NCBI GenBank assembly: GCA_964468045.1
Contig: CAYXTO010000013.1
Coordinates: 21,392-85,391, forward strand
Origin: an uncultured Caenibius sp.
GTDB lineage: Bacteria > Pseudomonadota > Alphaproteobacteria > Sphingomonadales > Sphingomonadaceae
DNA length: 64,000 nucleotides
Reading direction: 5' to 3'
The translations under genes were made by a program, and so were the position numbers. Below are positions 19,880 to 61,494 of the stretch, in pieces. The notes under the pieces were generated by a model. The model saw nothing but the letters and a program-made list of their open reading frames with translations. It was not told the DNA's origin and searched no databases. How positions within the stretch are numbered: position 1 is the stretch's first letter; each line of letters begins with the position of its first letter.

Positions 19880-19910
19880 TCGCACAACCCAATCGTCAAT
19901 GGAGGAATTT

Positions 19911-20669: not shown

Positions 20670-20675
20670 CCGCAG

Positions 20676-21889: not shown

Positions 21890-21904
21890 GCTACGGGCTG
21901 CCGC

Positions 21905-23149: not shown

Positions 23150-23161
23150 AGGGAAGAGGAA

Positions 23162-24091: not shown

Positions 24092-24131
24092 CCGCATCAC
24101 CCAGCATTCCAGACTTTCAGGGACCGATAGA

Positions 24132-28664: not shown

Positions 28665-29696
28665 TCAGATACGATAGAAGCGCGCGGCGTTGTCATGGAA
28701 CAGTGCCGCGCGTTCGCTTTCGCTGGCGCCTGAGGCCAGGCGCTTGAAGGCATTCCACAGCGTGACATAGTCGTACATCGCCTTGTCGACCGGGAAATTG
28801 CTCTCGAACACGCAGCGTTCCGCGCCGAACAGCTCGATTGTCGTTTCGAACCACGGGCGCCAGCTATCCGCCAGTTCCTGCGAACTGGGCGGCGTCGGCC
28901 GTTCATGCCATTCCGCGCCGGTGATGATCATTCCGAGCCCGCCCAGCTTGACATGGACGTTCGGGCAGCGGGCAAGCTCCGTCATATCCCTGCGCCAGTC
29001 GCTGAAGCGTTCCTTTTCCCGTGTCTTGTAGGGACCGACCCCGATCGGGGTGCCATAGTGATCCAGCATGACGCGCAGGTCCGGCAGCGCCCGCGCCACC
29101 TCCGCGAGTTCGGGCAATTGCTGGTGATAGAGCATCGCCTCATAGGACAGATCGTTGGCGATCAGCCGCTTCAGTCCATCGCGATAGGCAGGTTCGGCCA
29201 GCAGATAGCGCTGCGCGGGCTTCAGGACGATGCCATCGGGAAAATTGCTGTCATAGCTGACGCTATGCCGGATACCGCGCAAGCGCCCGTCCGCCACCCG
29301 GCGATGTTCGTTGAGCACATCCTCCAGCCTGTCGCCCAGGGTAAGGTCCGCAAAGGAAACGATCGCCGCGCATAATCTGGCCGCGATCCCGCGCCGCTCC
29401 GCTTCCCTGGCGACCCTGGTGACCGCTTCGGTTTCCCCGGCGCTGCGGAATTCGGCAGGACCTGAATCGCGATAGGCATAGCCCGCCTGGACCAGCACGG
29501 TGGCGACCACATTGTGCCCGCACGCCAGATCTTCCGCCAGCTCGTCGAGCAGATAGGCGTGGCCGCCTTCTTCCCACAGGTGATGATGGGCATCGATGAT
29601 CGGCAGGCCGGGATCGATTACCTCTTCGCGCGCCAGAGCGAGCCAGGCCGGATCGGGTGGCGGATACCGGTAGTGACCGGCAAGATCGAGTCCCAT
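28665..29696 (-). CDS. Amidohydrolase-2 family metal hydrolase (lactonase-like)
   Basis: Start moved to MGLDLAGHY (ATG 29694-29696). The N-terminal IIDAHHHLW motif and a C-terminal D-containing FESNFPVD are characteristic of amidohydrolase-2 lactonases / LigI-type enzymes. Confidence 0.8.
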   Translation of the reverse strand: MGLDLAGHYRYPPPDPAWLALAREEVIDPGLPIIDAHHHLWEEGGHAYLLDELAEDLACGHNVVATVLVQAGYAYRDSGPAEFRSAGETEAVTRVAREAERRGIAARLCAAIVSFADLTLGDRLEDVLNEHRRVADGRLRGIRHSVSYDSNFPDGIVLKPAQRYLLAEPAYRDGLKRLIANDLSYEAMLYHQQLPELAEVARALPDLRVMLDHYGTPIGVGPYKTREKERFSDWRRDMTELARCPNVHVKLGGLGMIITGAEWHERPTPPSSQELADSWRPWFETTIELFGAERCVFESNFPVDKAMYDYVTLWNAFKRLASGASESERAALFHDNAARFYRI

Positions 29697-29707
29697 GAGA
29701 TGAAGCC

Positions 29708-30415
29708 TTAGCGGTTGACAGGGTTGACAGGGTTGAGAAGTGTCATCGCCCGATCGAGCATCTTGGCAGTCGCCTTGTTGATGTCCTTCGGCTTGCGCAT
29801 CAGCAGCCAGGTCACGATCACCTGGTTGACGGCGCCAACCAGTATCGATGCGGTCTCGTAATAGTCGAGCTTCTCGCCGCTCCATTCGCCCCGCGCCGTT
29901 CCCATGCGCAAGGCATAGAGCAGGATCCGGGTGTAATCGTCGAACATATCCTTGAGCTCGCCCTGCGTGACCGTGACGCTGGGCCAGATTTCCAGATAGA
30001 GCGCCCGTGCCCAGTCGGGATTGCGACGCGCGAAATCGACCGAGAGGTAGAGGAAGTGCCAGACATATTCGTATGCGGTGGACTTCTTTTCGACAAGGGC
30101 GCGATATTCCTCGAAGAATCGGCACAGATTGGCCACCGGCACGGCGTGCGCGATGTCTTCCTTGCCTGCGTAATATTCATAGATGGTCGAGACCGGAATC
30201 CCGGCCTCCGCGGCAATGTCGGATATGCGCGATGCCGACAGGCCATCCCGCGCAAACACCCGCATGGCTGCGTTCAGGATCTCCTTCTCACGTTGCCGGC
30301 TGCGATCCTGCTTGCGGGAACTGTTCGGCTTGCACCGTTCCACCCTGCTATCGAGATAAGCGTACCACTCCTCGTCGGAGTAGGCATCCTGTTGTTTAGG
30401 CTGAATTGCCGCCAA
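29708..30415 (-). CDS. TetR-family transcriptional regulator
   Basis: HTH region KEILNAAMRVFARDGLSASRISDIAAEAGIPVSTIYEYYAGKEDI. 235 aa. Confidence 0.85.
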   Translation of the reverse strand: MAAIQPKQQDAYSDEEWYAYLDSRVERCKPNSSRKQDRSRQREKEILNAAMRVFARDGLSASRISDIAAEAGIPVSTIYEYYAGKEDIAHAVPVANLCRFFEEYRALVEKKSTAYEYVWHFLYLSVDFARRNPDWARALYLEIWPSVTVTQGELKDMFDDYTRILLYALRMGTARGEWSGEKLDYYETASILVGAVNQVIVTWLLMRKPKDINKATAKMLDRAMTLLNPVNPVNR

Positions 30416-34288: not shown

Positions 34289-35248
34289 ATGATTCGCCCC
34301 GAAGACGTAAGCTACCATACGCCCCAGGACGTCCAGTACGACTGGGCTGAAACCAGCTTCTTCTCCTTCCATGTTCCCGAAGCAAATCTTACGGGATGGA
34401 TCTATCTCATCGCCCGGACCGGCCTCGGCTCCATAGTCTGCGATATCGAAGTGATGGACCGGATCGGCCGGATCACTCTCGAAACCGTCTATTTCGACTT
34501 CCAGCAGCATCTGCCCTTGCCGGAAAAGCTCGAGGACTTCTCGCTGCTCAATGGCCTTTCCCTCAAGACCGAGAACGAACCGCGCGACTATGTTCTCGAT
34601 TACCAGGGCACGGACGACACCTTCTTCAAGCTGAAGTTTACCGGGCTGATGGATCCGTTCGATATCCATGATCCCAGCATGGATCCCCTTGCATCGGTGG
34701 ATCCCAACCAGAGCGGGTTCGGTTCCGCTTATGCAAACCACTTCGACATGACGGTTCACACCACCGGCAAGGTCCGCATCCGGGGCAAGGACTACGACAT
34801 CGATTGCGTGACGACGATGGATCACAGCTGGGGGCCCCGCAACGAGCGTGGCATGAACCCGATGGGCTGGATCAACGGCAATTTCGGGACCGATTTCGCT
34901 TTCCAGACAATCTGGAAGCTGGATCAGCTCAAGCAAGGCTGGGACCAGTTCGAGCTGGCCCACGGCTACGTGCTGATCGACGGCAAGGTGAAGGGCCTGA
35001 CCAAGGGCCGGATGCAGGCCGTCCGGCAAGGTCCCTTCCCGGCCGGGTATGAAACTGTCCTGACCGATCTGGACGGTCGCGAATACACCTTCACCGGCAC
35101 CACGGTGAACCAGACGCCCTGGGCTTGCTACAGCAACATCATGGCCATCAATTCGACCGTGAAGTGGTTCCACAATGGCCGGCCCGGCTATGGTCTCGCT
35201 CAGGAAAACTGGCCGCTCGACCGCTTGACCGGCAAGGGCCTTGCCTGA
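34289..35248 (+). CDS. Conserved hypothetical protein, unnamed family A, copy 2 of 3
   Basis: 319 aa. Shares WAETSFFSFHVPE and HTTGKVRIRGKDYDIDCVTTMDHSWGPRNE with the corresponding blocks of 57043-57981 and 2714-3658. RBS GGAGAGGA upstream. Confidence 0.75.
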   Translation: MIRPEDVSYHTPQDVQYDWAETSFFSFHVPEANLTGWIYLIARTGLGSIVCDIEVMDRIGRITLETVYFDFQQHLPLPEKLEDFSLLNGLSLKTENEPRDYVLDYQGTDDTFFKLKFTGLMDPFDIHDPSMDPLASVDPNQSGFGSAYANHFDMTVHTTGKVRIRGKDYDIDCVTTMDHSWGPRNERGMNPMGWINGNFGTDFAFQTIWKLDQLKQGWDQFELAHGYVLIDGKVKGLTKGRMQAVRQGPFPAGYETVLTDLDGREYTFTGTTVNQTPWACYSNIMAINSTVKWFHNGRPGYGLAQENWPLDRLTGKGLA

Positions 35249-35366: not shown

Positions 35367-36830
35367 TCATCCGTATTTGCGCAGGGTCATGTTGAGGGTG
35401 GAGGACTTCACCTCGATCACCGGCATGTTGGCGATCTTCATCAGCTTGCGCGCCTGCTCCAGCTCCGGCGTCGACAGCAGCGGATAGTTCCGCCGGATTG
35501 GCCCGGCTGCCTTCATCTTGTCCCTGTCTGCCTGCGGAACAGTCATCCGATAGATCAGCTCGTCCTCGTCCTCGGTGTCGTACTGCTTCTTCAACTCTTC
35601 CAGCGTCGGCTCCTCCGGCGGGTTGGCCAGCACTTCCTTGGCCCGGCTCGACGCCATGATCTTGTCCATCACCTCCGGATCCACCGGCGCCACGGGCTTG
35701 CCGTAATATTCCGCCGCATACTGGATCACTTCATCCGGCACCGTCCCATAGCGCTTGCCCGTCACCACATTCAGCACCGCCTGGATCCCCACCAGCTGGC
35801 TGAACGGCGTCGCCATCCCCGGATAGCCCAGGTCCCGCCGCACCGCCGCCACCTCGTCCAGAACCTCGTCCAGCTTGTCCATCATGTTGTGGTTGGCCAA
35901 CTGCGCCTTGAACGTGCCCATCATCCCGCCCGGGATCTGGTGCTCGATCGAGAAGATGTCGTATTCGGCATACTGGTTCACCAGGAAGCCCGCCGCCTTG
36001 CCGACCGCCTCGAAATGATCGGCCACCGGCTTGAACAGCGCTTCATCCAGATTGTGGGTATGGCCCTTGAGCTGGATGTTCCTGGCCATGATCTCGGTTG
36101 AGGGCACCGAGGGTCCATTGGCCATCGGCCGGCTCGCGGTGTGGATCACCGACACCCCGAAATCGATCGCATCGAGATAGGCCTTGGCCGACATCCCCAG
36201 CAGGTTGTTCGAATGCATCTCGATCGGCTTGCCGTTGGCCACCTTCACCAAGGCCGGCACCAGCGTCGACAGCCGCTCCCGCTCCAGCACACCCGCCGTG
36301 TCGTAGAGCAGGATGGAGTCGATGTTGGGATCGGAAGCCAGGATCCCGGCCTTCTCGATGAAATATTCGTCGGTATGGACCGGCGAAAGCGCGAACATGA
36401 TGGCGCCAGCCACCTGCGCCCCGTTCGCCGCCTTCGCTTCCTTGGCAAGCCGGCGCATATTGTCGGTGCCCAGCAGCACGTCATACAGCCAGAACGAGCG
36501 CACGCCATGCGCGCACAGGCGGCGCACCCACAGGTCCATCAGCGCCGGCGGCGTGATGCCGAAGGTGACGTTGGCATTGGCGCGCAGGCCCGCCCGGACC
36601 GGGGTGTTGGGCATCGACGCCACCAGCAGGTCCAGCCCGGACCAGTAATCCTCCTGGCAATAGCGGATCAGCACGTCCATCATGCCGCCGCCGGTCAGGT
36701 CGATGATCTTGAACCCGGTCCTGTCGATCAGCGGGGAGACCGGCAGCGCCATCCCGGCCTGCATCCGCAGGCCCCACAGGCTTTGCTGCCCGTCACGCAT
36801 GGTTTCGTCGAGAAATTCGATATGGGCCAT
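35367..36830 (-). CDS. OadA/PycB-type carboxyltransferase-like subunit (HMGL-like TIM barrel plus conserved carboxylase domain) without a biotinyl domain
   Basis: Start moved to MAHIEFLDETMRDGQQSL (ATG 36828-36830). The N-terminal D-x-T-x-RD-x-QS motif and the central EHQIPGGMMGTF...VRRDLGYPGMATPFSQLVGIQAVLNVV blocks match oxaloacetate decarboxylase alpha / pyruvate carboxylase B. There is no C-terminal MKM/biotinyl motif. Confidence 0.85.
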   Translation of the reverse strand: MAHIEFLDETMRDGQQSLWGLRMQAGMALPVSPLIDRTGFKIIDLTGGGMMDVLIRYCQEDYWSGLDLLVASMPNTPVRAGLRANANVTFGITPPALMDLWVRRLCAHGVRSFWLYDVLLGTDNMRRLAKEAKAANGAQVAGAIMFALSPVHTDEYFIEKAGILASDPNIDSILLYDTAGVLERERLSTLVPALVKVANGKPIEMHSNNLLGMSAKAYLDAIDFGVSVIHTASRPMANGPSVPSTEIMARNIQLKGHTHNLDEALFKPVADHFEAVGKAAGFLVNQYAEYDIFSIEHQIPGGMMGTFKAQLANHNMMDKLDEVLDEVAAVRRDLGYPGMATPFSQLVGIQAVLNVVTGKRYGTVPDEVIQYAAEYYGKPVAPVDPEVMDKIMASSRAKEVLANPPEEPTLEELKKQYDTEDEDELIYRMTVPQADRDKMKAAGPIRRNYPLLSTPELEQARKLMKIANMPVIEVKSSTLNMTLRKYG

Positions 36831-36834
36831 CGGC

Positions 36835-38205
36835 TCAGCTTCCCATCTTCTTGTCAAAGTCCGGCAGGCACTTGTCTTCCGCCCAGCGGGTTGTGATCTG
36901 GTTGTTCCGGAAATCGGGATGATCGACGATGAACGCAGCAAGCGGCATCGTGGTCTTGATCCCTTCCAGTTCGAATGCATTGATCGCCGCGATCAGCTTG
37001 TCGATCGCCTCGTTGCGGTCCTTCCCATACACGATCAGCTTGCCGATCATGGAATCGTAGAACGGTGGAACGAGGTAGTTCTCGCCGGCATGGCTATCCA
37101 GGCGGATACCCTCGCCCTGCGGCGGGTTCCACTTGGTGATCCGCCCGGGCGATGGTGCGAAATCGCGCTGCGCATCCTCCGCATTGATGCGGCATTCGAT
37201 GGCGTGGCCCCGAACTTCGACTTCATCCTGGGTGATACCGATCCCTTCGCCGCCCGCGACGCGAAGCTGGCAAGCGATCAGGTCGCGCCCGGTGATCTCT
37301 TCCGTCACCGGATGCTCGACCTGGATGCGCGAGTTGACCTCGATGAAGTAGAAATCGTTGCGATCGACGTCGTAGAGGAACTCGACCGTGCCGGCATTGC
37401 GATACTTCGCGGTCGAGGTGAGGCGCACCGCGGATTCATGCAACCGCTTGCGGACATCGTCCGGCACCGCCGTGGCCGGCGCTTCCTCGATCAGCTTCTG
37501 ATAACGGCGCTGGACGGTGCAGTCCCGCTCGCCGAAATGGACGACATTACCTTCGCCGTCACCGACGATCTGCACTTCGACATGGCGTGCCCGTTCGACA
37601 AAGCGTTCCATGTAAAGGCGATTGTCGCCAAAGGCGCTCTCCGCTTCGCGTGAGGCGCGTTCGAACGATGCGTCCAGTTCTTCCGGCGACACCGCCTTGA
37701 ACATCCCTCGTCCGCCGCCGCCGGCAGTCGCCTTCATGACCACCGGATAGCCGAGCTGGTCCGCAGCCTTCTTCGCCTCTTCCACGGAACGGATATGGTC
37801 TGTTCCAGGAACAGTCTGGACGTTGGCCGCAGCGGCCAATTCACGCGAAGAGATCTTGTCGCCCAGAATTTCGATGGAATCCGGACGGGGACCGACGAAG
37901 ACGATCCCTTCCTGCTCGCAAAGCCTGGCAAGCTCCGGCTTTTCCGACAGGAAACCATAGCCCGGATGCAAGGCATCGCAGCCGGTAGCCACGGCGGCGT
38001 GCACCACCAGGTTGACATCGAGATAGCTCTTGGTCGACGGCGCCGGCCCCAGCACGACCGCACGGTCGGCCATGCGCGCGCCCATGCTGTCCTTATCGGC
38101 GGCGGAAACCCCGATCACCGTCTCGATGCCAAGCGCCTTCGCGGTGCGCAGCACGCGGACCGCGATTTCGCCACGATTGGCGACAAAAAGGCGTTTGATC
38201 GCCAC
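36835..38205 (-). CDS. Biotin carboxylase (ATP-grasp) subunit
   Basis: RLFVANRGEIAVRVLRTAKALGIETV, HPGYGFLSE, GYPVVMKATAGGGGRGM, EVNSRIQVEHPVTE. 456 aa. Confidence 0.92.
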   Translation of the reverse strand: MAIKRLFVANRGEIAVRVLRTAKALGIETVIGVSAADKDSMGARMADRAVVLGPAPSTKSYLDVNLVVHAAVATGCDALHPGYGFLSEKPELARLCEQEGIVFVGPRPDSIEILGDKISSRELAAAANVQTVPGTDHIRSVEEAKKAADQLGYPVVMKATAGGGGRGMFKAVSPEELDASFERASREAESAFGDNRLYMERFVERARHVEVQIVGDGEGNVVHFGERDCTVQRRYQKLIEEAPATAVPDDVRKRLHESAVRLTSTAKYRNAGTVEFLYDVDRNDFYFIEVNSRIQVEHPVTEEITGRDLIACQLRVAGGEGIGITQDEVEVRGHAIECRINAEDAQRDFAPSPGRITKWNPPQGEGIRLDSHAGENYLVPPFYDSMIGKLIVYGKDRNEAIDKLIAAINAFELEGIKTTMPLAAFIVDHPDFRNNQITTRWAEDKCLPDFDKKMGS

Positions 38206-38208
38206 GGG

Positions 38209-38718
38209 TCAGGCCTTTTCGACGTAGAACAGCGGCTGTCCGTGCTCGACCATGTCGGCATCGTTGACGCAAACCTGCACGACCTTGCCGGAAACGCCAG
38301 CCTTCACCGCGGTGAAGAGCTTCATCACTTCGAGCAGGCAGATTTCGGTGTCTTCCGTGACCTGCTGGCCGATTTCCACGAAGGGCGCCGCGCCTGGCTT
38401 CGGTGCGCGGTAGAAGGTGCCGAGGTTCGGCGCTGTCACCGCCACCCAATTGGCCGGAATGCTGTCCGCAGCCGGCGCGCTTGCAGCGGGAGCCGAAGCG
38501 GCGGGCGCTGCAGCCGGGGCCGCAGGAGCGGCGGCGGCAGGTGCGGCGACAGCCGCCGGAGCGCTGGCAAGACCGCCGCCAATACCCGAAGTAAGCTGCG
38601 CATCGGCGCGCCGCGACAGGAACAGGTGCAGCCCGTCCAGTTCGATGTGCAATTCGTCCCAATCGGATTGTTCGAACAAATCGACAATCGCCACTACGTC
38701 TTTTGAGTTGTCAGACAC
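38209..38718 (-). CDS. Biotin carboxyl carrier protein
   Basis: Ala/Pro-rich linker (APAAVAAPAAAAPAAPAAAPAASAPAAS) followed by the biotinyl domain with CLLEVMKLFTAVKA (E-V-M-K-L attachment motif). Confidence 0.85.
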   Translation of the reverse strand: MSDNSKDVVAIVDLFEQSDWDELHIELDGLHLFLSRRADAQLTSGIGGGLASAPAAVAAPAAAAPAAPAAAPAASAPAASAPAADSIPANWVAVTAPNLGTFYRAPKPGAAPFVEIGQQVTEDTEICLLEVMKLFTAVKAGVSGKVVQVCVNDADMVEHGQPLFYVEKA

Positions 38719-38776: not shown

Positions 38777-40237
38777 TTACTTTGCCGATTCCAGCAACTT
38801 GTCACGCACCGAACGGCGCAGAATCTTGTTGGCCCCGCTCTTGGGAAGTTCATCCCACACATGGATCTCCTTCGGGCGCTTCACGCTCGAAAGCTTCCCG
38901 CGCGCGAATTCCATGATCGCCTCCGGATCGAGATCGCCGGTTCCGGCGACCACGGCCACCACGCGATCGCCCCATTTCTCGTCCGGCAGGCCAACCACCG
39001 CCACTTCGGAGACGCCGGGATAATCCATCAGGCCATCTTCGACTTCGCGCGGATAGATATTGTAGCCGCCCGAGATCAGCATGTCGTTCTTGCGATCGAC
39101 GATATAGAAGAAGCCATCCTCGTCCATGATGCCGATGTCGCCGGTGTGGAGCCAGCCATTGCGAAAGGCTTCGGCGGTCTTTTCCGGCATCTGCCAGTAT
39201 CCCGCCATGGTCTGCGGGCCACGGCAGACGATCTCGCCACGCTCACCCGGCGGCAGCGGATTGTCCTCGTCGTCGAAGATCGCGACCTCGACCACCGAGA
39301 ACGGACGTCCGCACGAACCCACGCGGTCATGATGTTCCGGGCGCAGATAGGTGATCGCCATCGGGCTTTCGGCCTGGCCGTAGCATTGTGCGAACACGCG
39401 GCCGAAACGCTCCTCGCCCCGCTTCATCACGTTTGGAGAGATGGAGGAGCCGCCATAGGAGATGATCTTGAAGCTGGTCTTCACCTGGTTGCCGACCGGA
39501 TCGTCCAGCAGCATGGCCAGCATCGTCGGCACCAGGAAGGAATAGGACGCCTGGGTCTGCTCCGCCAGCTTGAGATATTCGGTCGTGTCGAACTTGGTCA
39601 TCATGACCGAATGCACGCCGCGAATGATCGACGGCAGGAAGTAGGCACCCCCGGCATGGGCGATCGGCGCCCCGTGCAGGAAGATCTCCCCTTCGGCCAG
39701 TTCGGGGATGAGATCGGCCAGGAAGACATTGATCTCGACGAGATCGCTGCGGGTCGTCAGCACAACGACCTTCGACTTGCCGGTGGTGCCGCCGGTGAAT
39801 GCGAAGCGCAGCGGTGCATCCAGATCGCGGTCCACCGCACAGGGGTTCTGTTCACCCTTTTCGATCATTTCCAGCAGTTCTGGGAGCTGGATCTGGATTT
39901 CCGTATTGAGCTCGTCGATCCCGTCGTGGATCACGCAACGCGATTGCGACGCTTCAAGCTTGTGCAGATGGGTGTCGAGCGTTTCCTTCACATTGAGCTG
40001 CACCCGGACCAGCCCGGCCTTGAGGATCGCATAATAGGCGATCATGCATTCCGTGGAATTGGGCAGCAGCACCGCAACGCGATCGCCCGGATTGAGGCCC
40101 TTGGCGATCAGCGCGTTGCCGAGACGATCGGTCGCCGCATCGAAATCCCGGAAGCTGAGAGTGCGGTCGCCTTCGGTAATGCAAGGCGCATCCTTGTATT
40201 GGAGCGCCGCCCGGCGGATGATCGAACCGATCTGCAT
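38777..40237 (-). CDS. AMP-dependent acyl-CoA synthetase/ligase
   Basis: FTGGTTGKSKVVVL, YGQAESP, HTGDIGIMDEDGFFYIVDRKNDMLISGGYNIYPREVE, SGANKILRR. Confidence 0.9.
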   Translation of the reverse strand: MQIGSIIRRAALQYKDAPCITEGDRTLSFRDFDAATDRLGNALIAKGLNPGDRVAVLLPNSTECMIAYYAILKAGLVRVQLNVKETLDTHLHKLEASQSRCVIHDGIDELNTEIQIQLPELLEMIEKGEQNPCAVDRDLDAPLRFAFTGGTTGKSKVVVLTTRSDLVEINVFLADLIPELAEGEIFLHGAPIAHAGGAYFLPSIIRGVHSVMMTKFDTTEYLKLAEQTQASYSFLVPTMLAMLLDDPVGNQVKTSFKIISYGGSSISPNVMKRGEERFGRVFAQCYGQAESPMAITYLRPEHHDRVGSCGRPFSVVEVAIFDDEDNPLPPGERGEIVCRGPQTMAGYWQMPEKTAEAFRNGWLHTGDIGIMDEDGFFYIVDRKNDMLISGGYNIYPREVEDGLMDYPGVSEVAVVGLPDEKWGDRVVAVVAGTGDLDPEAIMEFARGKLSSVKRPKEIHVWDELPKSGANKILRRSVRDKLLESAK

Positions 40238-40254: not shown

Positions 40255-41304
40255 CTACTTCGCCATGGCGTGATCATGCATCAGCACGACACGACCGGTG
40301 ATTTCTTTCGCTTCCATCGCCCGGTGGGCCTCGGCGGCTTCGCTGACCGGCATGACGCGCCCGATCTCCGGCGTGATCTTCCCATCTGCCACGATCTGGA
40401 TGATCTTGCGCAGATCGTTGAGCGTCGCGTGGGCGCTGCCGATGAATTCCAGTTCCTTGAGGATCGAAAGCGCGGGATTGAACGGCCAGTTGCCCGGCTC
40501 CATCGTGCCTACGATGACCATGCGACCACCGGCCCGGATCGAGCGCACGCTCGACGGAAAGGTCGCGGCGCCGGCGATCTCGAGCACGCCATCAACGCCG
40601 ATGCCATCGGTCCAGTCGCGCAGTTCCTTGTGGAAGCCGCCCTCGCCCGCGACCACCACATGATCCGCGCCCGCATCCTTCAATTGCCGGGCCTTCGCCG
40701 GCGAAGTGGTCGCGGCGACCACGCGCAACCCGCCCAGCGCAGCCAGGCGAACCGCGTGGATGCCCACGCCCCCGGAAGCGCCGGTGATCAGCACCGTGCT
40801 GCCGATCGGCAGGGCCGCCCGGCGCAGCGCATGATAGCCCGTGCCGATCGCACAGCTCAGGACGGGCGCCACGTCCAGCGGGATTTCCTCGGGCAGATGC
40901 AGCGTATTGCGCTCCGAAGCGATGACATATTCGCCATAGCCGCCCGAGATCTGCTCGCCATAGAATCCGGCGCCGGAAACGCAGATGTTCTCCTGCCCGT
41001 TGCGGCAGGGAATGCAGGTGCCGCAACCGATCCGCTGGATCATCGCGACCCGGTCGCCGACCTTGAACCTGGTGATCAGCGATCCGACCTCGACCACTTC
41101 CCCGGCCACCTCATGCCCCATCACGCAGGGCAGCTGGGTGGTCGAGAAATGACCGGCGCGATTGAGCAGGTCGTGCCCGCACACGCCGCAGCCGGCGACG
41201 CGCACCAGCATCTGGTCCGCGGTGATTTCCGGAACCGGCACTTCCACCTGGTGCAGGACGGAAGGAGCGCCGAATTCGGAAAGCTGGATCGCCTTCATCT
41301 TCAT
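40255..41304 (-). CDS. Zinc-binding MDR-family dehydrogenase/reductase
   Basis: CGVCGHD, GHEVAGEVVEVG, structural-zinc loop CGTCIPCRNGQENIC, cofactor motif ITGASGGVGIHAV. Confidence 0.85.
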   Translation of the reverse strand: MKMKAIQLSEFGAPSVLHQVEVPVPEITADQMLVRVAGCGVCGHDLLNRAGHFSTTQLPCVMGHEVAGEVVEVGSLITRFKVGDRVAMIQRIGCGTCIPCRNGQENICVSGAGFYGEQISGGYGEYVIASERNTLHLPEEIPLDVAPVLSCAIGTGYHALRRAALPIGSTVLITGASGGVGIHAVRLAALGGLRVVAATTSPAKARQLKDAGADHVVVAGEGGFHKELRDWTDGIGVDGVLEIAGAATFPSSVRSIRAGGRMVIVGTMEPGNWPFNPALSILKELEFIGSAHATLNDLRKIIQIVADGKITPEIGRVMPVSEAAEAHRAMEAKEITGRVVLMHDHAMAK

Positions 41305-41310: not shown

Positions 41311-42432
41311 TTACCCCGCCGCCAGCAAAGCGACGGTGCCCGCCAGCACGCGTTCCTGATGATACTCGGTCGAACCGTAGAGCGTGCCCAGCAGGCGGCC
41401 CCGGCGATAATGAAAATGCAGCGCCATTTCCCAGGTATAACCCATCCCGCCATGCAGCTGGATCGCCTCGCGCATCACATGCACTGCCATCCGGTTGGCC
41501 TTGGACTTGGCCATCGACACAGCACGCTCCCGCTCATCCACATCGGCCGAAGCCATCGCCCAGGATGCATAGTAGGCGCCGGAACGGGCCGTGTTCAGAT
41601 CGACCGCCATGTCGGCGCAGCGATGCTTGATCGCCTGGAACGCACCGATCGGCTGGCCGAACTGCACGCGTTCCTTCACATAGCCGAGGGTGACGTCGAG
41701 CAGCCTACCGCCGATGCCGACCATGCCGAGCGAAGCGATCGTCGCCAGCAGATCGATCACATAAGCGGCATTCGCCGCACTGGCGGCGCCCAGAATGTCT
41801 TCCCTGGCGATCGCGACATTGTCGAAGCCGATGCTGTAGTAATCGCCGCTGATATCCAGCGCTTCCTCGCGGGAGATGGACACCCCATCGCGGTTGCGGT
41901 CGATCGCCAGCAGAATCGGTTCGCCAGCGACGTCCTTGGCGATCACCAGCAGCAGATCGGCGCGATCGGCGCCCGCCACCAGCAGCTTCCTGCCATTGAG
42001 GCGGTTGTCGGCAGTAAGCGCCGAGGCGAAACCCTCAGCCGCATAGCCGCCATCCTTCTCATAGACCGCGAACGCCACGCGAAGGCCGCCCGTGGAAAGG
42101 TCTTCCAGCCACTTCGCCTTCTGCGCATCATCGCCGAACCGGGCGATGACCAGGCTGGCCGCGATGGTGTCGGTCACCGTCAGGGGAACCAGCGCGGCGC
42201 CGAATTCCTCGGCGATCAGGGCCAGATCGACCGTGGTCAGGCCAAGGCCGCCCTGCTCTTCGGGAACCAGCAGGCCGAACAGGCCCAGCTCGGCCAGCTT
42301 CGGCCACAGCTCCGCCTCAAGCGCCACCGGATCGCCACCGTCGCGCAGGAGGTCGATCGGATATTCGGCGGAGAGGCTCTCACGAACCGTCTCCTGGAAC
42401 ATGTATTGTTCTTCGTTGAAGTCGAAATTCAT
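41311..42432 (-). CDS. Acyl-CoA dehydrogenase family protein, second member of an adjacent pair (beta-like subunit)
   Basis: Start moved to MNFDFNEEQYMF (ATG 42430-42432), 7 nt after the stop of the upstream ACAD. Overall ACAD fold pattern, but more divergent than its partner. Confidence 0.8.
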   Translation of the reverse strand: MNFDFNEEQYMFQETVRESLSAEYPIDLLRDGGDPVALEAELWPKLAELGLFGLLVPEEQGGLGLTTVDLALIAEEFGAALVPLTVTDTIAASLVIARFGDDAQKAKWLEDLSTGGLRVAFAVYEKDGGYAAEGFASALTADNRLNGRKLLVAGADRADLLLVIAKDVAGEPILLAIDRNRDGVSISREEALDISGDYYSIGFDNVAIAREDILGAASAANAAYVIDLLATIASLGMVGIGGRLLDVTLGYVKERVQFGQPIGAFQAIKHRCADMAVDLNTARSGAYYASWAMASADVDERERAVSMAKSKANRMAVHVMREAIQLHGGMGYTWEMALHFHYRRGRLLGTLYGSTEYHQERVLAGTVALLAAG

Positions 42433-42439
42433 GGCGGGC

Positions 42440-43630
42440 CTACTTCGGCAGGCCGAGCACGCGCTCGGCGATGATATTGCGCTGGATCTCGGATGTGCCG
42501 GAATAGATCGTGAAGGCACGGCTCTGCAGGCAGCTCATCGGGAAACGCCCCCGCGCCAGTGCATCCTCATCACCCTGCATCAGCAGCGCTTCCGGACCGA
42601 GAATCTCGATCGACATGTCGAACATGTCCTGCGCCACATGGCTCCAGTAGAGCTTCATCATGGAGCTTTCCGGGCCGGGCTTCTCGCCCTTGATCGCCTT
42701 GCTGAACTCGCGCAGGCAATTCATCCGCATCAGCTCGAGATCGACGATGGATTGGGCCAGGCGCTGACGAATGGCGGGATTATCGATCGCCTTCCCCTCA
42801 CCAAGCTCGACCTCGCCGGCGGTTTCGATCAGCAGATCGAGCTCCTGCTTGAAGCGGATCTGCCGGGCAAGCGCATCTTCCGCGCCGCGTTCGTAGGACA
42901 GCGTGGTCATCGCGATGCGCCAGCCATCGTTCAGTTCGCCAACGAGATTTTCCTTCGGAACGCGAACATTCTCGAAGAAGGTTTCGTTGAATTCCTTCTC
43001 CCCCGAAATCTGGGTGAGCGGGCGGATGGTGATTCCCGGCGTGCTCATGTCGACCAGGAAGAAGCTCAGCCCCTTGTGCTTCGGGGCGTTCTGATCGGTC
43101 CGCGCCAGCAGGATGCACCATTGGGAATACTGGGCGAAGCTGGTCCAGATCTTCTGCCCGTTGATGACGAATTCATCGCCGTCGAGATCAGCGCGGCAAC
43201 GGGAGGACGCCAGGTCCGACCCGGCATTCGGCTCGGAGAAGCCCTGGCACCAGATTTCCTCGGCAGCGAGGATCTTGGGAAGGTAGCGTTCGCGCTGCGC
43301 TTCCGACCCGTGGTGCATCAGCGTGGTGGCCGCAAGGTTGCGGCCGATGACATTGATGCCTTCCGGGGCCTGTGCGCGGGCCAGTTCTTCCGCGAAGATG
43401 CCCTGTTCGACCAAGGTCGCGCCACGGCCGCCATATTTCTGGGGCCAGCTGATGCCACTCCACCCGCCTTCATAGAGCTTGCGCTCCCAGTCGATCCGGA
43501 AATGGGCGCGCTCATCCTCGTCTTCCGGTTCGAAGATGGTCTTGCCCCAGCCTTTCGGCAAGGCATCGACCAGCCACGCACGCACCTCGCTGCGGAAACG
43601 CTGTTCTTCTTCCGAGTAATTGAAATCCAT
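42440..43630 (-). CDS. Acyl-CoA dehydrogenase, first member of the pair (alpha-like subunit)
   Basis: WPQKYGGRGATLVEQ, CQGFSEPNAGSDLAS, INGQKIWTSFA, and C-terminal IYSGTSEIQRNIIAERVLGLPK resemble the FadE26/FadE28-type steroid/bulky-substrate ACADs. Confidence 0.9.
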   Translation of the reverse strand: MDFNYSEEEQRFRSEVRAWLVDALPKGWGKTIFEPEDEDERAHFRIDWERKLYEGGWSGISWPQKYGGRGATLVEQGIFAEELARAQAPEGINVIGRNLAATTLMHHGSEAQRERYLPKILAAEEIWCQGFSEPNAGSDLASSRCRADLDGDEFVINGQKIWTSFAQYSQWCILLARTDQNAPKHKGLSFFLVDMSTPGITIRPLTQISGEKEFNETFFENVRVPKENLVGELNDGWRIAMTTLSYERGAEDALARQIRFKQELDLLIETAGEVELGEGKAIDNPAIRQRLAQSIVDLELMRMNCLREFSKAIKGEKPGPESSMMKLYWSHVAQDMFDMSIEILGPEALLMQGDEDALARGRFPMSCLQSRAFTIYSGTSEIQRNIIAERVLGLPK

Positions 43631-43639: not shown

Positions 43640-44425
43640 CTATTCCTTTCCGAATTCCGGGGCGCGCTTTTCACGGAAGGCGGCAACGCCTTCGGCATGG
43701 TCAGGCGTGGTGTAGGCCAGCGTCTGCGCATAGCCTTCGTATTCGAGCATCTGATCGAGCGTGGAATCCGCCGACTTGTTCAGCAGCGTCTTGATCATGG
43801 CCAGCGCGACCGGCGGGCCGGCGGCGATTTCCTTCGCGATCTTCCCGGCTTCGGCCAGCAGATCGTCATGCGGGACGACATGGTTCACAATGCCGAGATC
43901 GTAGGCTTCCTGCGCGCTGATCTTCTTGGCGGTGAAGCACAGTTCCTTCGCCTTGTTCACACCAACGATGCGGGTGAGGAAGTAAAGCCCGCCGAGATCC
44001 GGCACCAGACCCATCTTGGTGAAGATCTGGCTGTACATGGCCTTGTCGCTGGAAACGATGAAATCGCACGCCAGCGCGATGTTGAAGCCCGCGCCGACGG
44101 CCACGCCGTTCACGGCTGCGATCACCGGCTTTTCCAGGTCGAATAGCGGACGCAGCACATTGCGCAGGATGCCGCGATGGCGCGCGCGACGGGCCAGCAG
44201 CTTCATGTTCGGGTCCATGCCGCGGACATCGGCGCCGGCGCAGAAACCACGGCCCGCACCCGTCAAGATGACGCAACGCACTTCCGGATTGGCGGCGATC
44301 TCGCCAATCAGGTAATTCAGTTCCTTGTACATCTGGTCATTGGTGCTGTTCAGCGCGTCAGGGCGGTTCAGCGTGATCGTCGCTACACGCTCGTCCAGCT
44401 CATAGGTGATCGTTTCGAAATCCAA
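43640..44425 (-). CDS. Enoyl-CoA hydratase (crotonase)
   Basis: No in-frame ATG near the conserved N-terminus. TTG at 44423-44425 is preceded by AGGAG 8 nt upstream, giving (M)DFETITYELDERVATITLNRPDALN. FCAGADV, AAVNGVAVGAGFNIALACD, EGVAAFREKRAPEF. Confidence 0.85.
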   Translation of the reverse strand: MDFETITYELDERVATITLNRPDALNSTNDQMYKELNYLIGEIAANPEVRCVILTGAGRGFCAGADVRGMDPNMKLLARRARHRGILRNVLRPLFDLEKPVIAAVNGVAVGAGFNIALACDFIVSSDKAMYSQIFTKMGLVPDLGGLYFLTRIVGVNKAKELCFTAKKISAQEAYDLGIVNHVVPHDDLLAEAGKIAKEIAAGPPVALAMIKTLLNKSADSTLDQMLEYEGYAQTLAYTTPDHAEGVAAFREKRAPEFGKE

Positions 44426-44468: not shown

Positions 44469-45302
44469 TCAGAATGCGATTGCGTCAGACTGCTGCGGCG
44501 GCACGAACGCGATATCCCCTTCGGTCGAATCCGGAATCGCCCACCAGTCCTCAGGCATATGCGTCGGAATGCGGAAATCATGCGCGGGCACGACGATATC
44601 GGCATGGTCCATCACGCGCTGCATCGCCGCCGCCCAGTCACGCTCGCTTTCAGAGCGGATGGGGCCCGGCAGGAATGTGTCGGCAAGATAGCGGGTCGGC
44701 CTGTCCGTGGCCCGCGGATCGGCGGGATACCAATATTTGTAATGGTCCCCCAGATCAGACACGAGCGCGACCTTGCCCTTGGCCGTGGTCACGATCGGAA
44801 CCTGCATGCCCGGCGTATGGGAAGGAACATGCAGGACGTGGATGCCATCCACGAAATCGAAATCGCCCTCGACCAGGCGCAGACCCTTGGGGCGCTTGCG
44901 GCTCAGAAGCTCGGCCATGATGTGGCCCTTGAAGAAAGGCCGCTGGCTCGGCGTCGGATCGATCGCGTGGAACAGTTCCTCGCGCTGCACCACGACGCAG
45001 GCATTGGGAAACAGGTCGGTGTTGTCGGCATGGTCGAAATGCATGTGGGTCAGGATGACATGGCTGATATCGTCCGGGGTCAGCCCATGTTCGGCAAGGC
45101 GTGCGCGCAAGGCCGCGTGGCCGCCGCCCCAGCCGCTCACCTTCAGCATCTCCTCGATCCGGGCGATATCGGTCATCCCGCTATCGACCAGGAAATGCTG
45201 CTTGCCGTCGGTCACGAGCCAGACGTGAATGGGGTCGCGATGGATCTTCCCGCCTTGCGGCAGATAGAGTTCACCAATCCTGAGCGAATGAACCTCGAAC
45301 AT
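44469..45302 (-). CDS. MBL-fold metallo-hydrolase (lactonase-like)
   Basis: H-x-H-x-D-H motif THMHFDHADN. 277 aa. Pattern resembles N-acyl-homoserine-lactonase-type MBL proteins. Confidence 0.85.
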   Translation of the reverse strand: MFEVHSLRIGELYLPQGGKIHRDPIHVWLVTDGKQHFLVDSGMTDIARIEEMLKVSGWGGGHAALRARLAEHGLTPDDISHVILTHMHFDHADNTDLFPNACVVVQREELFHAIDPTPSQRPFFKGHIMAELLSRKRPKGLRLVEGDFDFVDGIHVLHVPSHTPGMQVPIVTTAKGKVALVSDLGDHYKYWYPADPRATDRPTRYLADTFLPGPIRSESERDWAAAMQRVMDHADIVVPAHDFRIPTHMPEDWWAIPDSTEGDIAFVPPQQSDAIAF

Positions 45303-45357: not shown

Positions 45358-46287
45358 TTACTCGTCGATGACCTCGAACCGCTCGATGTCCGACACGCTG
45401 CCCTTGCGCTCGCCTTGCGTCCAGATCGCGCGGACACGGGTGCCCGGCTTGATCTTCTGCTTGGCGCTTTCAAGGTCCTCGATATCGATCATGTGGATCA
45501 TGCGGGTGGAAGCTCCATCGAGAACGATCTCGGCATAGACATAGGGCACCTGCCGGGTCTGGCCAAAGACTTCCATGTTGATGATCGAACATGCGCGGAT
45601 CGTGCCGGTGTTGGCGCACGCCTTCCAGGTGCCGGTGCGCTTATGCGTCACGTCGTCGACCTCGCGCGGCGGCAGCAGCGCATCGTCGCCATTCGAGGTG
45701 CGCACGCCCATCACCCGTCCATGCTCGCGGATCTCGTCGAACATGCGGCCGTAATAGGGGCCGTAGGCATGCTCGTAGTCGAGAGTCATGGAATAGTCGA
45801 TGACGCCAAGCGGTTCGGCTGGATCGGTCAGATCCTTGACCGCGCCGGCCGGCGCGTCGGCCGATGGGACGAAGCCGGCGATCGCCAGGATGGACGTGCC
45901 CTGGTCATCATCGCTCCATTTCGCCGCGACGCGCTGGCCGACCGACAAATCGCCCAGATCGGCAAGGATCTTGTGCGGGAATTCGTTGTCGCAGCCATCA
46001 AGGCGGATCAGGCCGATGACCTCGCCGTTCACGCGGGTGAAGGCGGTGAGAACACCGGTTTCCGGAACCTGGACCAGCGCCACGGGCTCGTCGCCGTTGA
46101 CGGGCGAAAAGTCCTGCGCGGGGGCAACCACCTTGCCATCGGGGAACTTCGAGCCGACGATGCGGCGGTTCGGCATTTCCGCGAGGAACGTTCCGGCCGC
46201 TCGGCCAGGAGTCAGCGTGTAAGGCATGCTGATCTGGCTGTGGAAGGTCGGAAGATCGAGCGGGTAAGCTTCTGGTGCGGAGTACAT
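45358..46287 (-). CDS. Tandem DUF35-type OB-fold protein (two OB-fold modules, no zinc-ribbon cysteines)
   Basis: 309 aa. Two repeats of the DUF35 C-terminal OB pattern (GVLTAFTRV...IGLIRLDG...VGQRVAAKW and GTIRACSIIN...YVYAEIVLDG...PGTRVRAIW). Confidence 0.8.
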   Translation of the reverse strand: MYSAPEAYPLDLPTFHSQISMPYTLTPGRAAGTFLAEMPNRRIVGSKFPDGKVVAPAQDFSPVNGDEPVALVQVPETGVLTAFTRVNGEVIGLIRLDGCDNEFPHKILADLGDLSVGQRVAAKWSDDDQGTSILAIAGFVPSADAPAGAVKDLTDPAEPLGVIDYSMTLDYEHAYGPYYGRMFDEIREHGRVMGVRTSNGDDALLPPREVDDVTHKRTGTWKACANTGTIRACSIINMEVFGQTRQVPYVYAEIVLDGASTRMIHMIDIEDLESAKQKIKPGTRVRAIWTQGERKGSVSDIERFEVIDE

Positions 46288-46299: not shown

Positions 46300-47451
46300 T
46301 TAAGCGCTCAGCACGGCACAGCCGCGCAGGTTGGCCCAGCCGCCGCCCGACTGGACGAGTGCGGTCTTGGCGCCTTTGATCTGGTGGCTCTCGTTGCGGC
46401 CCATGACCTGGGTCGCCCCTTCGATCAGCCGGATAACGCCGACCGCGCCGATCGGATTGGCGCCCATGCAGCCTCCCGAGGGATTGACCGGAATATCGCC
46501 ATCGAGCTGGGTGGCGCCGGAAGCGATCAGCTCAGCCGCCTGGCCCGGAGGGCACAGACCAAGGCTTTCGTAATAGTTGAGCTCGAAGCAGCTATAGGGC
46601 TCCTGCACCTCGACCACGTCGAACTGGCGACGCGGATTGGTGATGCCGGCGGCGCGATAGACGCGCTTCGAAGCGATTGCGAGCGGTTCCGACAGCATCA
46701 GCGAGCGTTCCGGGGCATTGTCCGCTTCGCAGCAATAGGCAATGCCGCGAATCCATGCCGGCGTGGTGGTCGAATGGTGCGCCACCTTCTCGTTGGCGAG
46801 AACGATGGCAGCCGCGCCGTCCGAGATCGGCGGCACGTCGAGCAGCTTGATCGGCCAGCACAACGGCCGGGAATTGAGCACGTCCTCGACGGTCACTTCC
46901 TTCTTCACATGCGCATAGGGATTGGCGATCGCGTTCTTGCGATTCTTGGCCGCAACCATCGCCGCGGCTTCTTCCGTATGGCCCAGCACCTCCATGCGCG
47001 CCCGCCAGTAAGCGGCGGAAAAGCCCATGATGCCGACCGCGAACTCACGACCCCAGAACGGATCGTAAAGCGTCGAGATCGAGTACTGAAGCTGGCCTTC
47101 GGACAGCTTGTCGTACGCGACCACGAGCGTGCGCTCCGAATAGCCGCCCGCGACCTGGTAATAGCCGGCAAGAGCGCCGGCAAAGCCTGCGCCGCCGCCG
47201 CTGGTGAGGCGCACGACCGACTTGCCCTGCGCGCCGATCGCATCGACTACCCACTTTTCCGGCTGGTTCACCGCAGCGAACAGCACGGGGCCGGTAGCGA
47301 CGACCACCGTGTCGATCTCATCCATCGACAGCTTCGCGTCAGCCAATGCACGATCCACCGCCTCGCGGACGAGACCAGCCTGGCTGACATCGGTCCGACG
47401 GCGTGCGTGATGCGTCTGTCCGACGCCTACAATTCCTACTTCACGGCCCAT
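46300..47451 (-). CDS. Thiolase-fold (SCP-x/Ltp-like) protein with an incomplete catalytic set
   Basis: ATG at 47449-47451 (TTG alternative at 47457). The expected nucleophile loop reads VRLTSGGGAGFAGAL with no Cys. The C-terminal GGCMGANPIGAVG has Asn where canonical thiolases have His. Confidence 0.85.
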   Translation of the reverse strand: MGREVGIVGVGQTHHARRRTDVSQAGLVREAVDRALADAKLSMDEIDTVVVATGPVLFAAVNQPEKWVVDAIGAQGKSVVRLTSGGGAGFAGALAGYYQVAGGYSERTLVVAYDKLSEGQLQYSISTLYDPFWGREFAVGIMGFSAAYWRARMEVLGHTEEAAAMVAAKNRKNAIANPYAHVKKEVTVEDVLNSRPLCWPIKLLDVPPISDGAAAIVLANEKVAHHSTTTPAWIRGIAYCCEADNAPERSLMLSEPLAIASKRVYRAAGITNPRRQFDVVEVQEPYSCFELNYYESLGLCPPGQAAELIASGATQLDGDIPVNPSGGCMGANPIGAVGVIRLIEGATQVMGRNESHQIKGAKTALVQSGGGWANLRGCAVLSA

Positions 47452-47453
47452 GA

Positions 47454-49601: not shown

Positions 49602-49740
49602 CTTCTCCCCGCATCGAAAACGCAATTTCCCGGCTGCCGTAACTGCACGTCCGGGACGGGTAAAGCCGAAAGACTTTTTGATTCGGTTTGACCTGTCTTG
49701 CCTCTCTTTCTACACCCAAGAGCGGAGGGAGAAGAATAAA

Positions 49741-57981: not shown

Positions 57982-58069
57982 GTTTCTCTCCCGTATTTGC
58001 GTTGCCCCATACGCAAAAGAGCCCCGGCCGTAAAGCCGGAGCCCCCATTGCAACCGATTTTTGTTCGGA

Positions 58070-61304: not shown

Positions 61305-61494
61305 CTCTCTACTCTCCCGATTTCGCTACGAAGAGCGAGGTAAACCGGCAGGGCCTGTCATTGTCAATCGATTCTCCTTCGGCTTTTGGAGATTCGCGCT
61401 GCCCCCTTGGCTTGCCGGGCGACAGGCTATAGGCGGGTGTTCCGCAAAACCATGGGCCATCAGCAGGCCGGACCACATCCAACTGGACGAGGAT

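Follow-up and report, generated by a model that had tools for sequence, protein, structure and literature searches.

What reaction is left to a biotin-dependent carboxylase whose carboxyltransferase has replaced two of the metal-site residues of its family, and which is encoded at the end of a catabolic operon? The question is raised by a 64,000-nucleotide stretch of DNA from an uncultured Caenibius sp. (contig CAYXTO010000013.1, positions 21,392 to 85,391; the whole stretch is called the window below), in which genes for BCCP (biotin carboxyl carrier protein), a biotin carboxylase (BC) and a carboxyltransferase (CT) close a 13-gene operon. A sequence-only reading of this DNA had proposed a dedicated carboxylase that depends on ATP and biotin, is built of three components, one of them an atypical TIM-barrel transferase, and is encoded in a catabolic operon beside a CoA ligase; our analysis supports that proposal. 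It was not before 2022 that PycB-like, biotin-dependent ketone carboxylation was demonstrated, and the substrates known to date are phosphorylated aryl methyl ketones derived from lignin. What the window adds is a widespread, very conserved and uncharacterised sister clade that is kinase-free, has a rebuilt metal site, sits in an aliphatic or alicyclic context and is coupled to a putative Ltp-type aldolase. We propose that the BCCP-BC-CT set would act as a dedicated, kinase-independent carboxylase of a non-aromatic ketone, the β-keto acid product being activated by the adjacent ligase, and we give this proposal about an even chance of being right.

The carboxylase genes and the transferase active site

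All three genes lie on the minus strand. BCCP (38209-38718, 169 residues) has the EVMKL biotinylation motif, an Ala/Pro-rich linker and a Pfam Biotin_lipoyl domain; BC (36835-38205, 456 residues) is an ATP-grasp protein with the Pfam domains Biotin_carb_N, CPSase_L_D2 and Biotin_carb_C; and CT (35367-36830) has a TIM barrel plus a PYC_OADA domain. The gaps between the genes are 3 nucleotides (38206-38208) and 4 nucleotides (36831-36834). The CT start was taken at MAHIEFLDETMRDGQQS, position 36830, which gives a protein of 487 residues; the mechanical open reading frame (ORF) extends to 36980 and overlaps BC. Directly upstream of the triad is an AMP-forming acyl-CoA ligase with AMP-binding domains (38777-40237, minus strand), the proposed activator of the β-keto acid product. 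Coordinates and Pfam domains agree with the earlier description of these closely spaced genes at the end of an operon, downstream of a ligase. A terminator-like or promoter-like site was sought downstream of CT and none was found.

By Pfam and NCBIfam both BC and BCCP appear intact. BC matched biotin carboxylases of the PDB at 1e-145 to 1e-130 and the CfiA structures at about 1e-128. In NCBIfam it passed the PRK08591 subfamily model (609.5, cutoff 597) and fell short of the accC equivalog TIGR00514 (581.8, cutoff 626.5), and BCCP passed TIGR00531 (120.2, cutoff 115.2).

The conserved carboxylase domain noticed in the CT was recovered as Pfam PYC_OADA (PF02436, 1.2e-28), together with an HMGL-like match below threshold (20.6 bits, cutoff 29). 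The Pfam scan gave no Biotin_lipoyl match in the CT and the chain stops about 47 residues past the CT domain, in agreement with the earlier remark that it has no C-terminal biotinyl domain. In NCBIfam the protein lies under every PycB, OadA and 5S cutoff (best score 327.1 against 402; oadA 285.5 against 756.5). Among the window ORFs scanned there was neither a hydantoinase-type domain nor a crotonase-fold Carboxyl_trans domain (AccA/AccD-type), as had been said of the latter. The AlphaFold model of the CT has a pLDDT of only 64 because the alignment behind it is shallow, and it served for fold assignment alone. The top Foldseek matches of the model were the OadA CT (2nx9), PycB (5ks8) and 5S (1rqb) with TM scores of about 0.7, and in the model Y176 and H206/N208 lie where successive strands of the barrel have their C-terminal ends.

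A phmmer search of PDB sequences with the CT returned PycB (5ks8_C, 5.6e-61), OadA (2nx9_A) and 5S (1rqb), and these alignments are ungapped around the motifs. On 2nx9 numbering R12 and D13 correspond to the retained R16 and D17, and H206 to the retained H207, whereas Y176 takes the place of K178 and N208 that of H209. The zinc ligands of OadA we take to be D17, carbamylated K178, H207 and H209 (Studer et al. 2007); a literature search for the ligand residues of OadA and pyruvate carboxylase (PC) found no usable paper stating the ligands. The ungapped alignments to all three proteins bear out the two exchanges reported previously, Tyr for the carbamylated Lys and Asn for the second His of the HxH motif. 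Other changes relative to the canonical proteins are H19 to Q15, Y94 to F90, and PGGM[LI][ST]N to PGGMMGT. That the PGGM motif holds the catalytic Thr of PC was considered and rejected: range offsets, which are approximate, put T882 of the Rhizobium etli PC (the residue mutated in PDB 3tw6) in the TPxSQ motif, of which the CT keeps T341 and S344.

CT homologues of 78-100% identity form more than 120 clusters (built at 90% identity), the named sources being Novosphingobium, Sphingomonas, Chelatococcus and Parvularculaceae. R12, D13, Q16, R83, F90, Y176, H206, N208, N209, G305, T306 and the entire LLYDTAGVL segment are invariant in the 118 full-length members, as are 197 of the 487 positions overall. 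Since Y176 and N208 are invariant across 118 clusters, the remodelled site is under strong purifying selection and is not the outcome of chance or decay. The active site is probably live in its remodelled form. The exchange of residues 176 and 208 suggests either a harder, oxygen-rich site of the Mg/Mn type or a carbonyl polarised by the tyrosine: we infer that a hard divalent ion could still find ligands in Asp13, His206 and Asn208 and that Tyr176 may polarise the carbonyl. The site that has been rebuilt is the one that defines the entire OadA/PycB/PC transferase family.

The exchanges were then placed among 335 CT relatives (E ≤ 1e-30, one representative per 50%-identity cluster), many of which are BCCP-less proteins of 480-500 residues. 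The Y-type state (LLYDTxG, H-x-N-N, PGGMMGT) comprises the window clade together with the metagenomic P0121, at 67% identity, and a protein on Novosphingobium resinovorum pSA1, at 65%. The E-type state (xxEDxxG, HxH kept, PGGM[TA]GT) is found at 43-46% identity, for example on Rhodococcus oxybenzonivorans pRB98 and in Panacagrimonas, and the K-type state, with canonical Lys and HxH, in many proteins. The Y-type is monophyletic in a neighbour-joining tree and stands beside E-type groups. Judged by these alignments, the loss of Lys and His is specific to the window CT's own lineage. The Glu of the E-type is a plausible stand-in for the carbamate, and the series from Lys to Glu and from Lys to Tyr over related clades amounts to a natural experiment on the role of the carbamylated lysine. 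The tree assigns the window CT to a separate Y-type clade, and the neighbourhoods described below give it a ketone/alicyclic operon context.

The statement that TIM-barrel transferases of this type are limited to 2-oxo acids is outdated, since HpeCBA and AcvCDE carboxylate ketones (PMC9618137; bioRxiv 10.1101/2022.04.28.489975; PMC12624787). HpeCBA of Rhodococcus rhodochrous GD02 carboxylates 4-phospho-acetophenone and 4-phospho-acetovanillone with conversion of one ATP to ADP and is inactive on unphosphorylated ketones (PMC9618137). AcvCDE of Sphingobium lignivorans SYK-6, encoded within acvABCDEF, performs the same carboxylation, and its AcvE is PycB-like and 26% identical to PycB (bioRxiv 10.1101/2022.04.28.489975). 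The N. aromaticivorans arrangement is marK-acvCDEF (PMC12624787). XccABC of Aromatoleum aromaticum EbN1 is a predicted anaerobic counterpart of the Hpe and Acv carboxylases. HpeCBA could not be made in E. coli, and AcvD and AcvE were not clearly obtained from that host. A Sphingobium yanoikuyae plasmid carries genes for a thioesterase and a BKACE, then Tm-1-like (MarK)-BCCP-BC-CT-HAD, which is the published marK-acvCDEF layout. The CT of this plasmid, picked by synteny, is the AcvE-type CT of our comparisons, the sequences of HpeB, AcvE and the Xcc CT themselves lying outside them. Its identity to the window CT is only 33.4%. Both Lys (FYIKDPGG) and HxH (EVHPHC) are retained, and in the neighbour-joining tree the protein belongs to a K-type clade, far from the window CT. 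Because of this low identity, the retained Lys and HxH and the separate clade, the window CT is a relative of the characterised ketone carboxylases and not a member of their clade. The idea that the K-to-Y and H-to-N exchanges are a signature of the characterised ketone carboxylases was rejected, since the AcvE-type CT has K and HxH. As HpeCBA and AcvCDE are already ketone carboxylases, the concept is not new biochemistry as such: of the case made earlier for an unconventional carboxylase, the distinct clade and the rebuilt site stand, whereas biotin-dependent acetophenone-type carboxylation was already known.

The operon and its relatives in other genomes

The co-directional run extends from 49625 to 35367 on the minus strand. 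At its head is an enoyl-CoA hydratase (ECH)-family protein (48801-49625), a homologue of which is also syntenic in a Chelatococcus locus. There follow two thiolase-like genes, thl1 (47454-48560, Ltp4-like) and thl2 (46300-47457, a putative aldol-lyase subunit, Ltp3-like), a DUF35/OB_ChsH2_C protein of 309 residues (45358-46287), the partner of the thiolase-like pair, a lactonase-like MBL-fold hydrolase (44469-45302) and a second ECH-family protein (43640-44425, by domain search and synteny). Next come the syntenic genes for a PimC-like large subunit (42440-43630; TIGR03204 288.9, below cutoff) and a PimD-like small subunit (41311-42444) of acyl-CoA dehydrogenase, then a Zn-dependent alcohol dehydrogenase (Zn-ADH; 40255-41304, domains ADH_N and ADH_zinc_N) and finally the ligase, BCCP, BC and CT. 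The Zn-ADH, which is kept in L001, L012 and L014 among the related loci, possibly interconverts a secondary alcohol and a ketone. The start codon of the small dehydrogenase subunit is uncertain: the mechanical ORF (41311-42519) overlaps that of the large subunit (42440-43630) by 80 nucleotides, and the true start is probably near 42444, like that of the 377-residue homologues, which would result in a 4-nucleotide overlap.

Both thl1 and thl2 belong to the SCP2-thiolase/Ltp fold family (which includes 6ok1), with the DUF35 gene adjacent, and neither has the nucleophilic Cys or the His of the GHP motif, residues that are present in the five thiolases aligned with the pair. Ltp2 also lacks the thiolase Cys and His. 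Together thl1, thl2 and the DUF35 protein carry the signature of a putative Ltp-type retro-aldolase; Ltp3-Ltp4 is a heteromeric aldol-lyase (PMC6678751). A role of the three as a thiolase for β-ketoacyl-CoA was rejected because the catalytic Cys and His are missing from both thiolase-like proteins. Since retro-aldol cleavage of a tertiary 3-hydroxyacyl-CoA gives acetyl-CoA or propionyl-CoA plus a ketone, an Ltp-type aldolase fits as the ketone source, and the dehydrogenase pair (best matches PimC and PimD, below cutoff) and ECH probably supply the steps before aldol cleavage. The CitE-type lyase (13220-14404), suggested earlier as a possible source of the ketone, lies at a distance of 21 kb, and in other genomes it shows no synteny with the carboxylase; the aldolase of the same operon is the better source. 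The thl2 protein is the most conserved of the operon, with 87-96% identity across loci where the CT has 77-92%.

A contig search with the CT protein alone gave 20 loci, N. aromaticivorans, SYK-6 and EbN1 not being among them. The block thl1-thl2-DUF35-MBL-ECH followed by the two acyl-CoA dehydrogenases, in some cases ADH and ligase, and the carboxylase is kept in eight sphingomonad loci, the order of CT, BCCP and BC being variable. In the sphingomonad loci L015, L018 and L019 BC lies 6-10 kb downstream of CT, next to a second, shorter BCCP-like gene. No kinase or phosphatase gene was found within 10 kb in any window-clade locus examined. The divergent neighbour of the block in L001 and L002 is a chnABCDE-like set (SDR, Zn-ADH, esterase, Baeyer-Villiger monooxygenase (BVMO) and aldehyde dehydrogenase), which is a ketone-to-diacid module. 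A literature search for a described sphingomonad carboxylase/DUF35 operon returned nothing relevant.

The aldolase and dehydrogenase block is absent from the Rhizobiales loci (Chelatococcus L011, Rhizobiaceae L017), which retain an Amidohydro_2 protein. In the window this lactonase-like protein is encoded at 28665-29708 (minus strand), and it is the carboxylase partner found in the largest number of loci, across two orders. The Chelatococcus locus adds an ABC transporter, a BKACE 1.5 kb from the carboxylase, a long ECH and a 3-oxoacid CoA-transferase. BKACE and the CoA-transferase both handle β-keto acids, and their presence beside the carboxylase thus supports a β-keto acid product. Capture of that product by a BKACE, as suggested earlier, gains comparative support from the Chelatococcus protein, which is 58% identical to that of the window, and from the BKACE that precedes the AcvCDE-type cluster on the Sphingobium plasmid. 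The window BKACE (23174-24091, plus strand) passes the NCBIfam equivalog '3,5-dioxohexanoate:acetyl-CoA acetone transferase' (543.6, cutoff 430 bits) and is a possible alternative outlet for the β-keto acid.

This BKACE gene is part of a plus-strand block (19899-25415) that encodes an SDR, a BadI-like 2-ketocyclohexanecarboxyl-CoA hydrolase, which is a ring-opening crotonase (20960-21889; TIGR03210 404.6, a little short of the cutoff, 467.6), an acetyl-CoA hydrolase/transferase-family protein (21905-23149), the BKACE and a long ECH (24147-25415). The block looks like a ring-opening and β-keto-acid module; it is the Chelatococcus locus alone that suggests a link to the carboxylase. The window also has a BVMO and an esterase, and the island overall is concerned with ketones, lactones and alicyclic or branched acyl-CoAs.

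Farther relatives have other partners. In L006 and L007 (Y-type) and L008 (E-type) the CT is accompanied by PPDK_N/PEP-utiliser kinases, two conserved proteins, a CoA ligase and a true thiolase; the L008 thiolase has an OB-fold (DUF35) partner, and this locus has a phosphatase too. The ligase embedded in the Y-type cluster of L006 is 64% identical to that of the window. The recurring logic of the superclade is carboxylation, formation of a CoA ester, then cleavage. The two conserved proteins, of about 517 and 200 residues and without a Pfam match, adjoin the PPDK_N/PEP-utiliser genes in three distant genomes (L006 2691-6356; L007 5585-7099 and 15233-15820; L008 1575-5243), with which they may form a new multi-subunit kinase. 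In Panacagrimonas (L005 2322-6977) the order is APH kinase-BCCP-E-type CT-DUF35-thiolase, with no BC gene within the 13 kb examined.

Several further observations concern these loci and the window. In Novosphingobium SG720 (L003 13401-14877) a biotin synthase gene (Radical_SAM + BATS) comes after the carboxylase genes, preceded by a 142-residue ORF, and on an Arthrobacter plasmid (L009 12869-14915) a K-type CT-accB-accC set adjoins an ECF/BioY biotin transporter; both look like a dedicated biotin supply for accessory carboxylases. The window has three DUF7064/DUF7065 (Rv3169 family) paralogues (2675-3658, 34289-35248 and 57043-58053). The DUF7064 gene next to CT is conserved, with an LLM oxidoreductase, in the closest relatives L012-L014, and it is also kept in L001, whose locus ends before that position. 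Two APH-family phosphotransferases are encoded at 55804-56997 and 61189-62691. A 621-residue protein (7244-9109, minus strand) in which a membrane FA_desaturase/hydroxylase domain is joined to FNR-like reductase and 2Fe-2S ferredoxin domains would be a self-sufficient di-iron hydroxylase or desaturase.

The proposed reaction and its alternatives

The Hpe and Acv precedent and the operon context leave a ketone as the most plausible substrate and a β-keto acid as the most plausible product, as the sequence-only reading had it. From the same evidence we infer the substrate class and the order of steps. The dehydrogenase pair and hydratase would convert a β-branched or cycloalkyl-substituted acyl-CoA to a tertiary 3-hydroxyacyl-CoA, which the Cys-less Ltp-type aldolase with its DUF35 partner would cleave to acetyl-CoA and a ketone; the Zn-ADH would be an alternative supplier of ketone from a secondary alcohol. 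BC would use ATP and bicarbonate to carboxylate the biotin of the separate BCCP, and the BCCP-less TIM-barrel CT would transfer CO2 to the α-carbon of the enolate of a free, non-aromatic, non-phosphorylated ketone, the candidates being an alicyclic (cyclohexanone-type) ketone or a methyl or ethyl ketone. The β-keto acid would be thioesterified by the adjacent CoA ligase, or exchanged with acetyl-CoA by BKACE, and a thiolase or BadI-type hydrolase would cleave or ring-open the resulting β-ketoacyl-CoA for entry into β-oxidation. One version of the scheme would start from a cycloalkanone, which would pass through the 2-oxocycloalkane-carboxylate and its CoA ester to ring opening, giving a dicarboxyl-CoA for the PimCD-like dehydrogenase. 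In the other a 3-methyl-branched acyl-CoA would give a methyl ketone and acetyl-CoA, and the methyl ketone would become a 3-oxo acid and then a 3-oxoacyl-CoA.

Several points weigh against this scheme. The nearest characterised enzymes have an identity of only about 33%, their Lys and HxH are canonical, and their phenolic substrate has to be phosphorylated. With two of four metal ligands lost, the CT could have another chemistry or no catalytic activity. The Rhizobiales loci, which do not have the block of aldolase and dehydrogenase genes, must obtain the ketone in another way. In the window 11-14 kb separate the carboxylase from the BadI-like and BKACE genes, in the examined sphingomonad relatives neither gene occurs within 10 kb, and the scheme leaves the roles of the MBL and Amidohydro_2 proteins unexplained. 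Moreover, an order of steps like that of the Atu/Liu pathways, with carboxylation of an enoyl-CoA before hydration and cleavage, fits the operon equally well.

This last order is the first alternative. Geranyl-CoA and methylcrotonyl-CoA carboxylases carboxylate a γ-carbon, as is classically proposed also for C28 of C24-branched sterol side chains. By analogy, an acyl-CoA dehydrogenase would give a 3-alkyl-2-enoyl-CoA, the γ-carbon would be carboxylated through a vinylogous enolate, the hydratase and Ltp-type lyase would free a β-keto acid with acetyl-CoA or propionyl-CoA, and the ligase would re-activate the acid. The operon has exactly the set of genes needed (dehydrogenase pair, carboxylase, hydratase, Cys-less aldolase plus DUF35, ligase), and the HMGL-like superfamily contains HMG-CoA lyase, which binds acyl-CoA. 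A review of sterol degradation gives the same succession of desaturation, C28 carboxylation, hydration, Ltp3-Ltp4 cleavage and obligatory re-thioesterification and names no carboxylase (PMC6678751). However, the Rhizobiales loci have the carboxylase without dehydrogenase, hydratase or aldolase genes, and the homologues of known function act on free ketones or 2-oxo acids. To our knowledge all known acyl-CoA carboxylases have crotonase-fold Carboxyl_trans subunits, of which there is none among the window ORFs scanned. We therefore regard carboxylation of an enoyl-CoA as unlikely.

A second alternative is a carboxylase of the Hpe/Acv/Xcc type acting on a phosphorylated (aryl) ketone, whose kinase and phosphatase genes would lie apart from it, APH-family genes such as those at 55804-56997 or 61189-62691 being candidates. 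The BCCP-BC-CT order is that of acvCDE, and in Panacagrimonas BCCP-CT is preceded by an APH gene. PPDK_N/PEP-utiliser kinases accompany the E-type L008, which has a phosphatase as well, and the Y-type relatives that come closest to the window clade without belonging to it (L006, L007). Kinase and carboxylase genes were clustered in only 52 of 836 cases (PMC13101465). Nevertheless, the absence of kinase and phosphatase genes within 10 kb in the window-clade loci examined, operon partners of aliphatic or alicyclic β-oxidation in a window lacking aromatic ring-cleavage genes, and a CT that is 33% identical to the AcvE-type CT and belongs to another clade make such a substrate quite improbable.

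The CT could also belong to an ordinary three-subunit carboxylase of a 2-oxo acid (pyruvate or 2-oxoglutarate) with an anaplerotic role, PycB, OadA and 5S being its best PDB and NCBIfam matches. It retains R12, Q16 and R83, positions that presumably bind pyruvate in PC. We consider this reading very improbable: all the family cutoffs are missed widely, the carbamyl-Lys and one His are replaced, the genes lie within, and are co-conserved with, a catabolic operon and its CoA ligase, and the distribution of the clade over named sphingomonads and a few further Alphaproteobacteria is patchy, which fits an accessory trait. The least credible explanation is a CT without catalytic activity, serving as scaffold or regulator, or a BCCP and BC that are the housekeeping accBC. 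It could be argued from the loss of two of four metal ligands, a BCCP above the AccB equivalog cutoff and a BC that does not adjoin CT in some relatives. Against it, the substituted residues and those around them do not vary in 118 clusters, 197 of 487 positions being invariant, and the BC score lies below the cutoff of the accC equivalog. BC and BCCP also vary together with CT across loci, and Y-type and E-type clusters have orthologous sets. Most sphingomonads are without this clade, whereas an acetyl-CoA carboxylase is presumably essential, and separate accB/accC-like genes are reported in Sphingobium japonicum UT26S.

Carboxylation of a free, non-aromatic ketone thus remains our preferred reading. 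It may be extended to a new route for the removal of β-branches or ring substituents, in which dehydrogenation, hydration and Ltp-type retro-aldol cleavage would be followed by kinase-independent carboxylation of the ketone and re-entry as β-ketoacyl-CoA, and which possibly explains sterol C28 carboxylation; this extension we regard as doubtful. If it were true, retro-aldol cleavage followed by carboxylation would be an alternative to the Atu logic and a biotin-dependent counterpart of acetone carboxylase, and C28 carboxylation would act on the 24-ketone after Ltp3-Ltp4 cleavage rather than on an enoyl-CoA; a literature search for an assigned C28 sterol carboxylase found none named. If the substrate were a plain aliphatic or alicyclic ketone, the chemistry of biotin enzymes would be extended. 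The carboxylase would then provide an oxygen-independent alternative to Baeyer-Villiger cleavage, of relevance to naphthenic acids, terpenoids and sterol side chains, and a new CO2-fixing biocatalyst that forms C-C bonds.

Comparison with known systems

Like the Hpe, Acv and Xcc systems, the window has separate genes for BCCP, BC and a BCCP-less, PycB-like CT of about 490 residues within one transcription unit, and the order BCCP-BC-CT is that of acvCDE. In those systems the β-keto acid product is handed to a CoA ligase or BKACE, and the same is proposed for the window. The differences lie in the transferase and its surroundings. AcvE, HpeB and the Xcc CT are 42-55% identical to one another, whereas the window CT is 33.4% identical to the AcvE-type protein and falls in another clade. 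The window neighbours are genes of aliphatic or alicyclic, not aromatic, β-oxidation, and the operon has neither a kinase (HpeHI, AcvAB or MarK) nor a phosphatase (HpeD or AcvF) of the kind found in those systems.

The E-type and kinase-linked Y-type clusters, the closest relatives at 45-67% identity, share with the window the PGGMxGT motif, the loss of the carbamyl-Lys and the link to a CoA ligase and/or DUF35 plus thiolase. They differ from the window in that the E-type has HxH unaltered and Glu at the position of the Lys, and L006-L008 carry PPDK_N/PEP-utiliser kinases, the conserved proteins of 517 and 200 residues and true Cys-thiolases.

With the CT of PycB, OadA, 5S and PC the window protein shares fold and domain order (TIM barrel, then PYC_OADA) as well as the Asp of RDxxQS, the first His, Arg83 and TPxSQ. 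It differs in lacking the site of Asp, carbamylated Lys and His-x-His and in scoring below the family cutoffs, and unlike PycB and OadA it has no C-terminal BCCP domain. The 2-oxoglutarate carboxylase CfiAB similarly combines a BC subunit with a PycB-like CT; in this enzyme, which takes part in the reductive TCA cycle, CfiB includes a BCCP domain and its substrate is a 2-oxo acid, whereas the context of the window genes is catabolic.

The acetone and acetophenone carboxylases AcxABC and Apc perform the same formal reaction, ATP-dependent conversion of a ketone to a β-keto acid; they are biotin-independent and hydantoinase-related. The Atu/Liu pathways, and the C28 carboxylation proposed together with Ltp3-Ltp4, resemble the window operon in the removal of a β-alkyl branch by a dehydrogenase, a biotin carboxylase, a hydratase, a lyase and a re-activation step. 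In Atu/Liu a crotonase-fold CT acts on acyl-CoA and the lyase is of the HMG-CoA-lyase type, whereas the window combines a TIM-barrel CT with a lyase of the thiolase superfamily.

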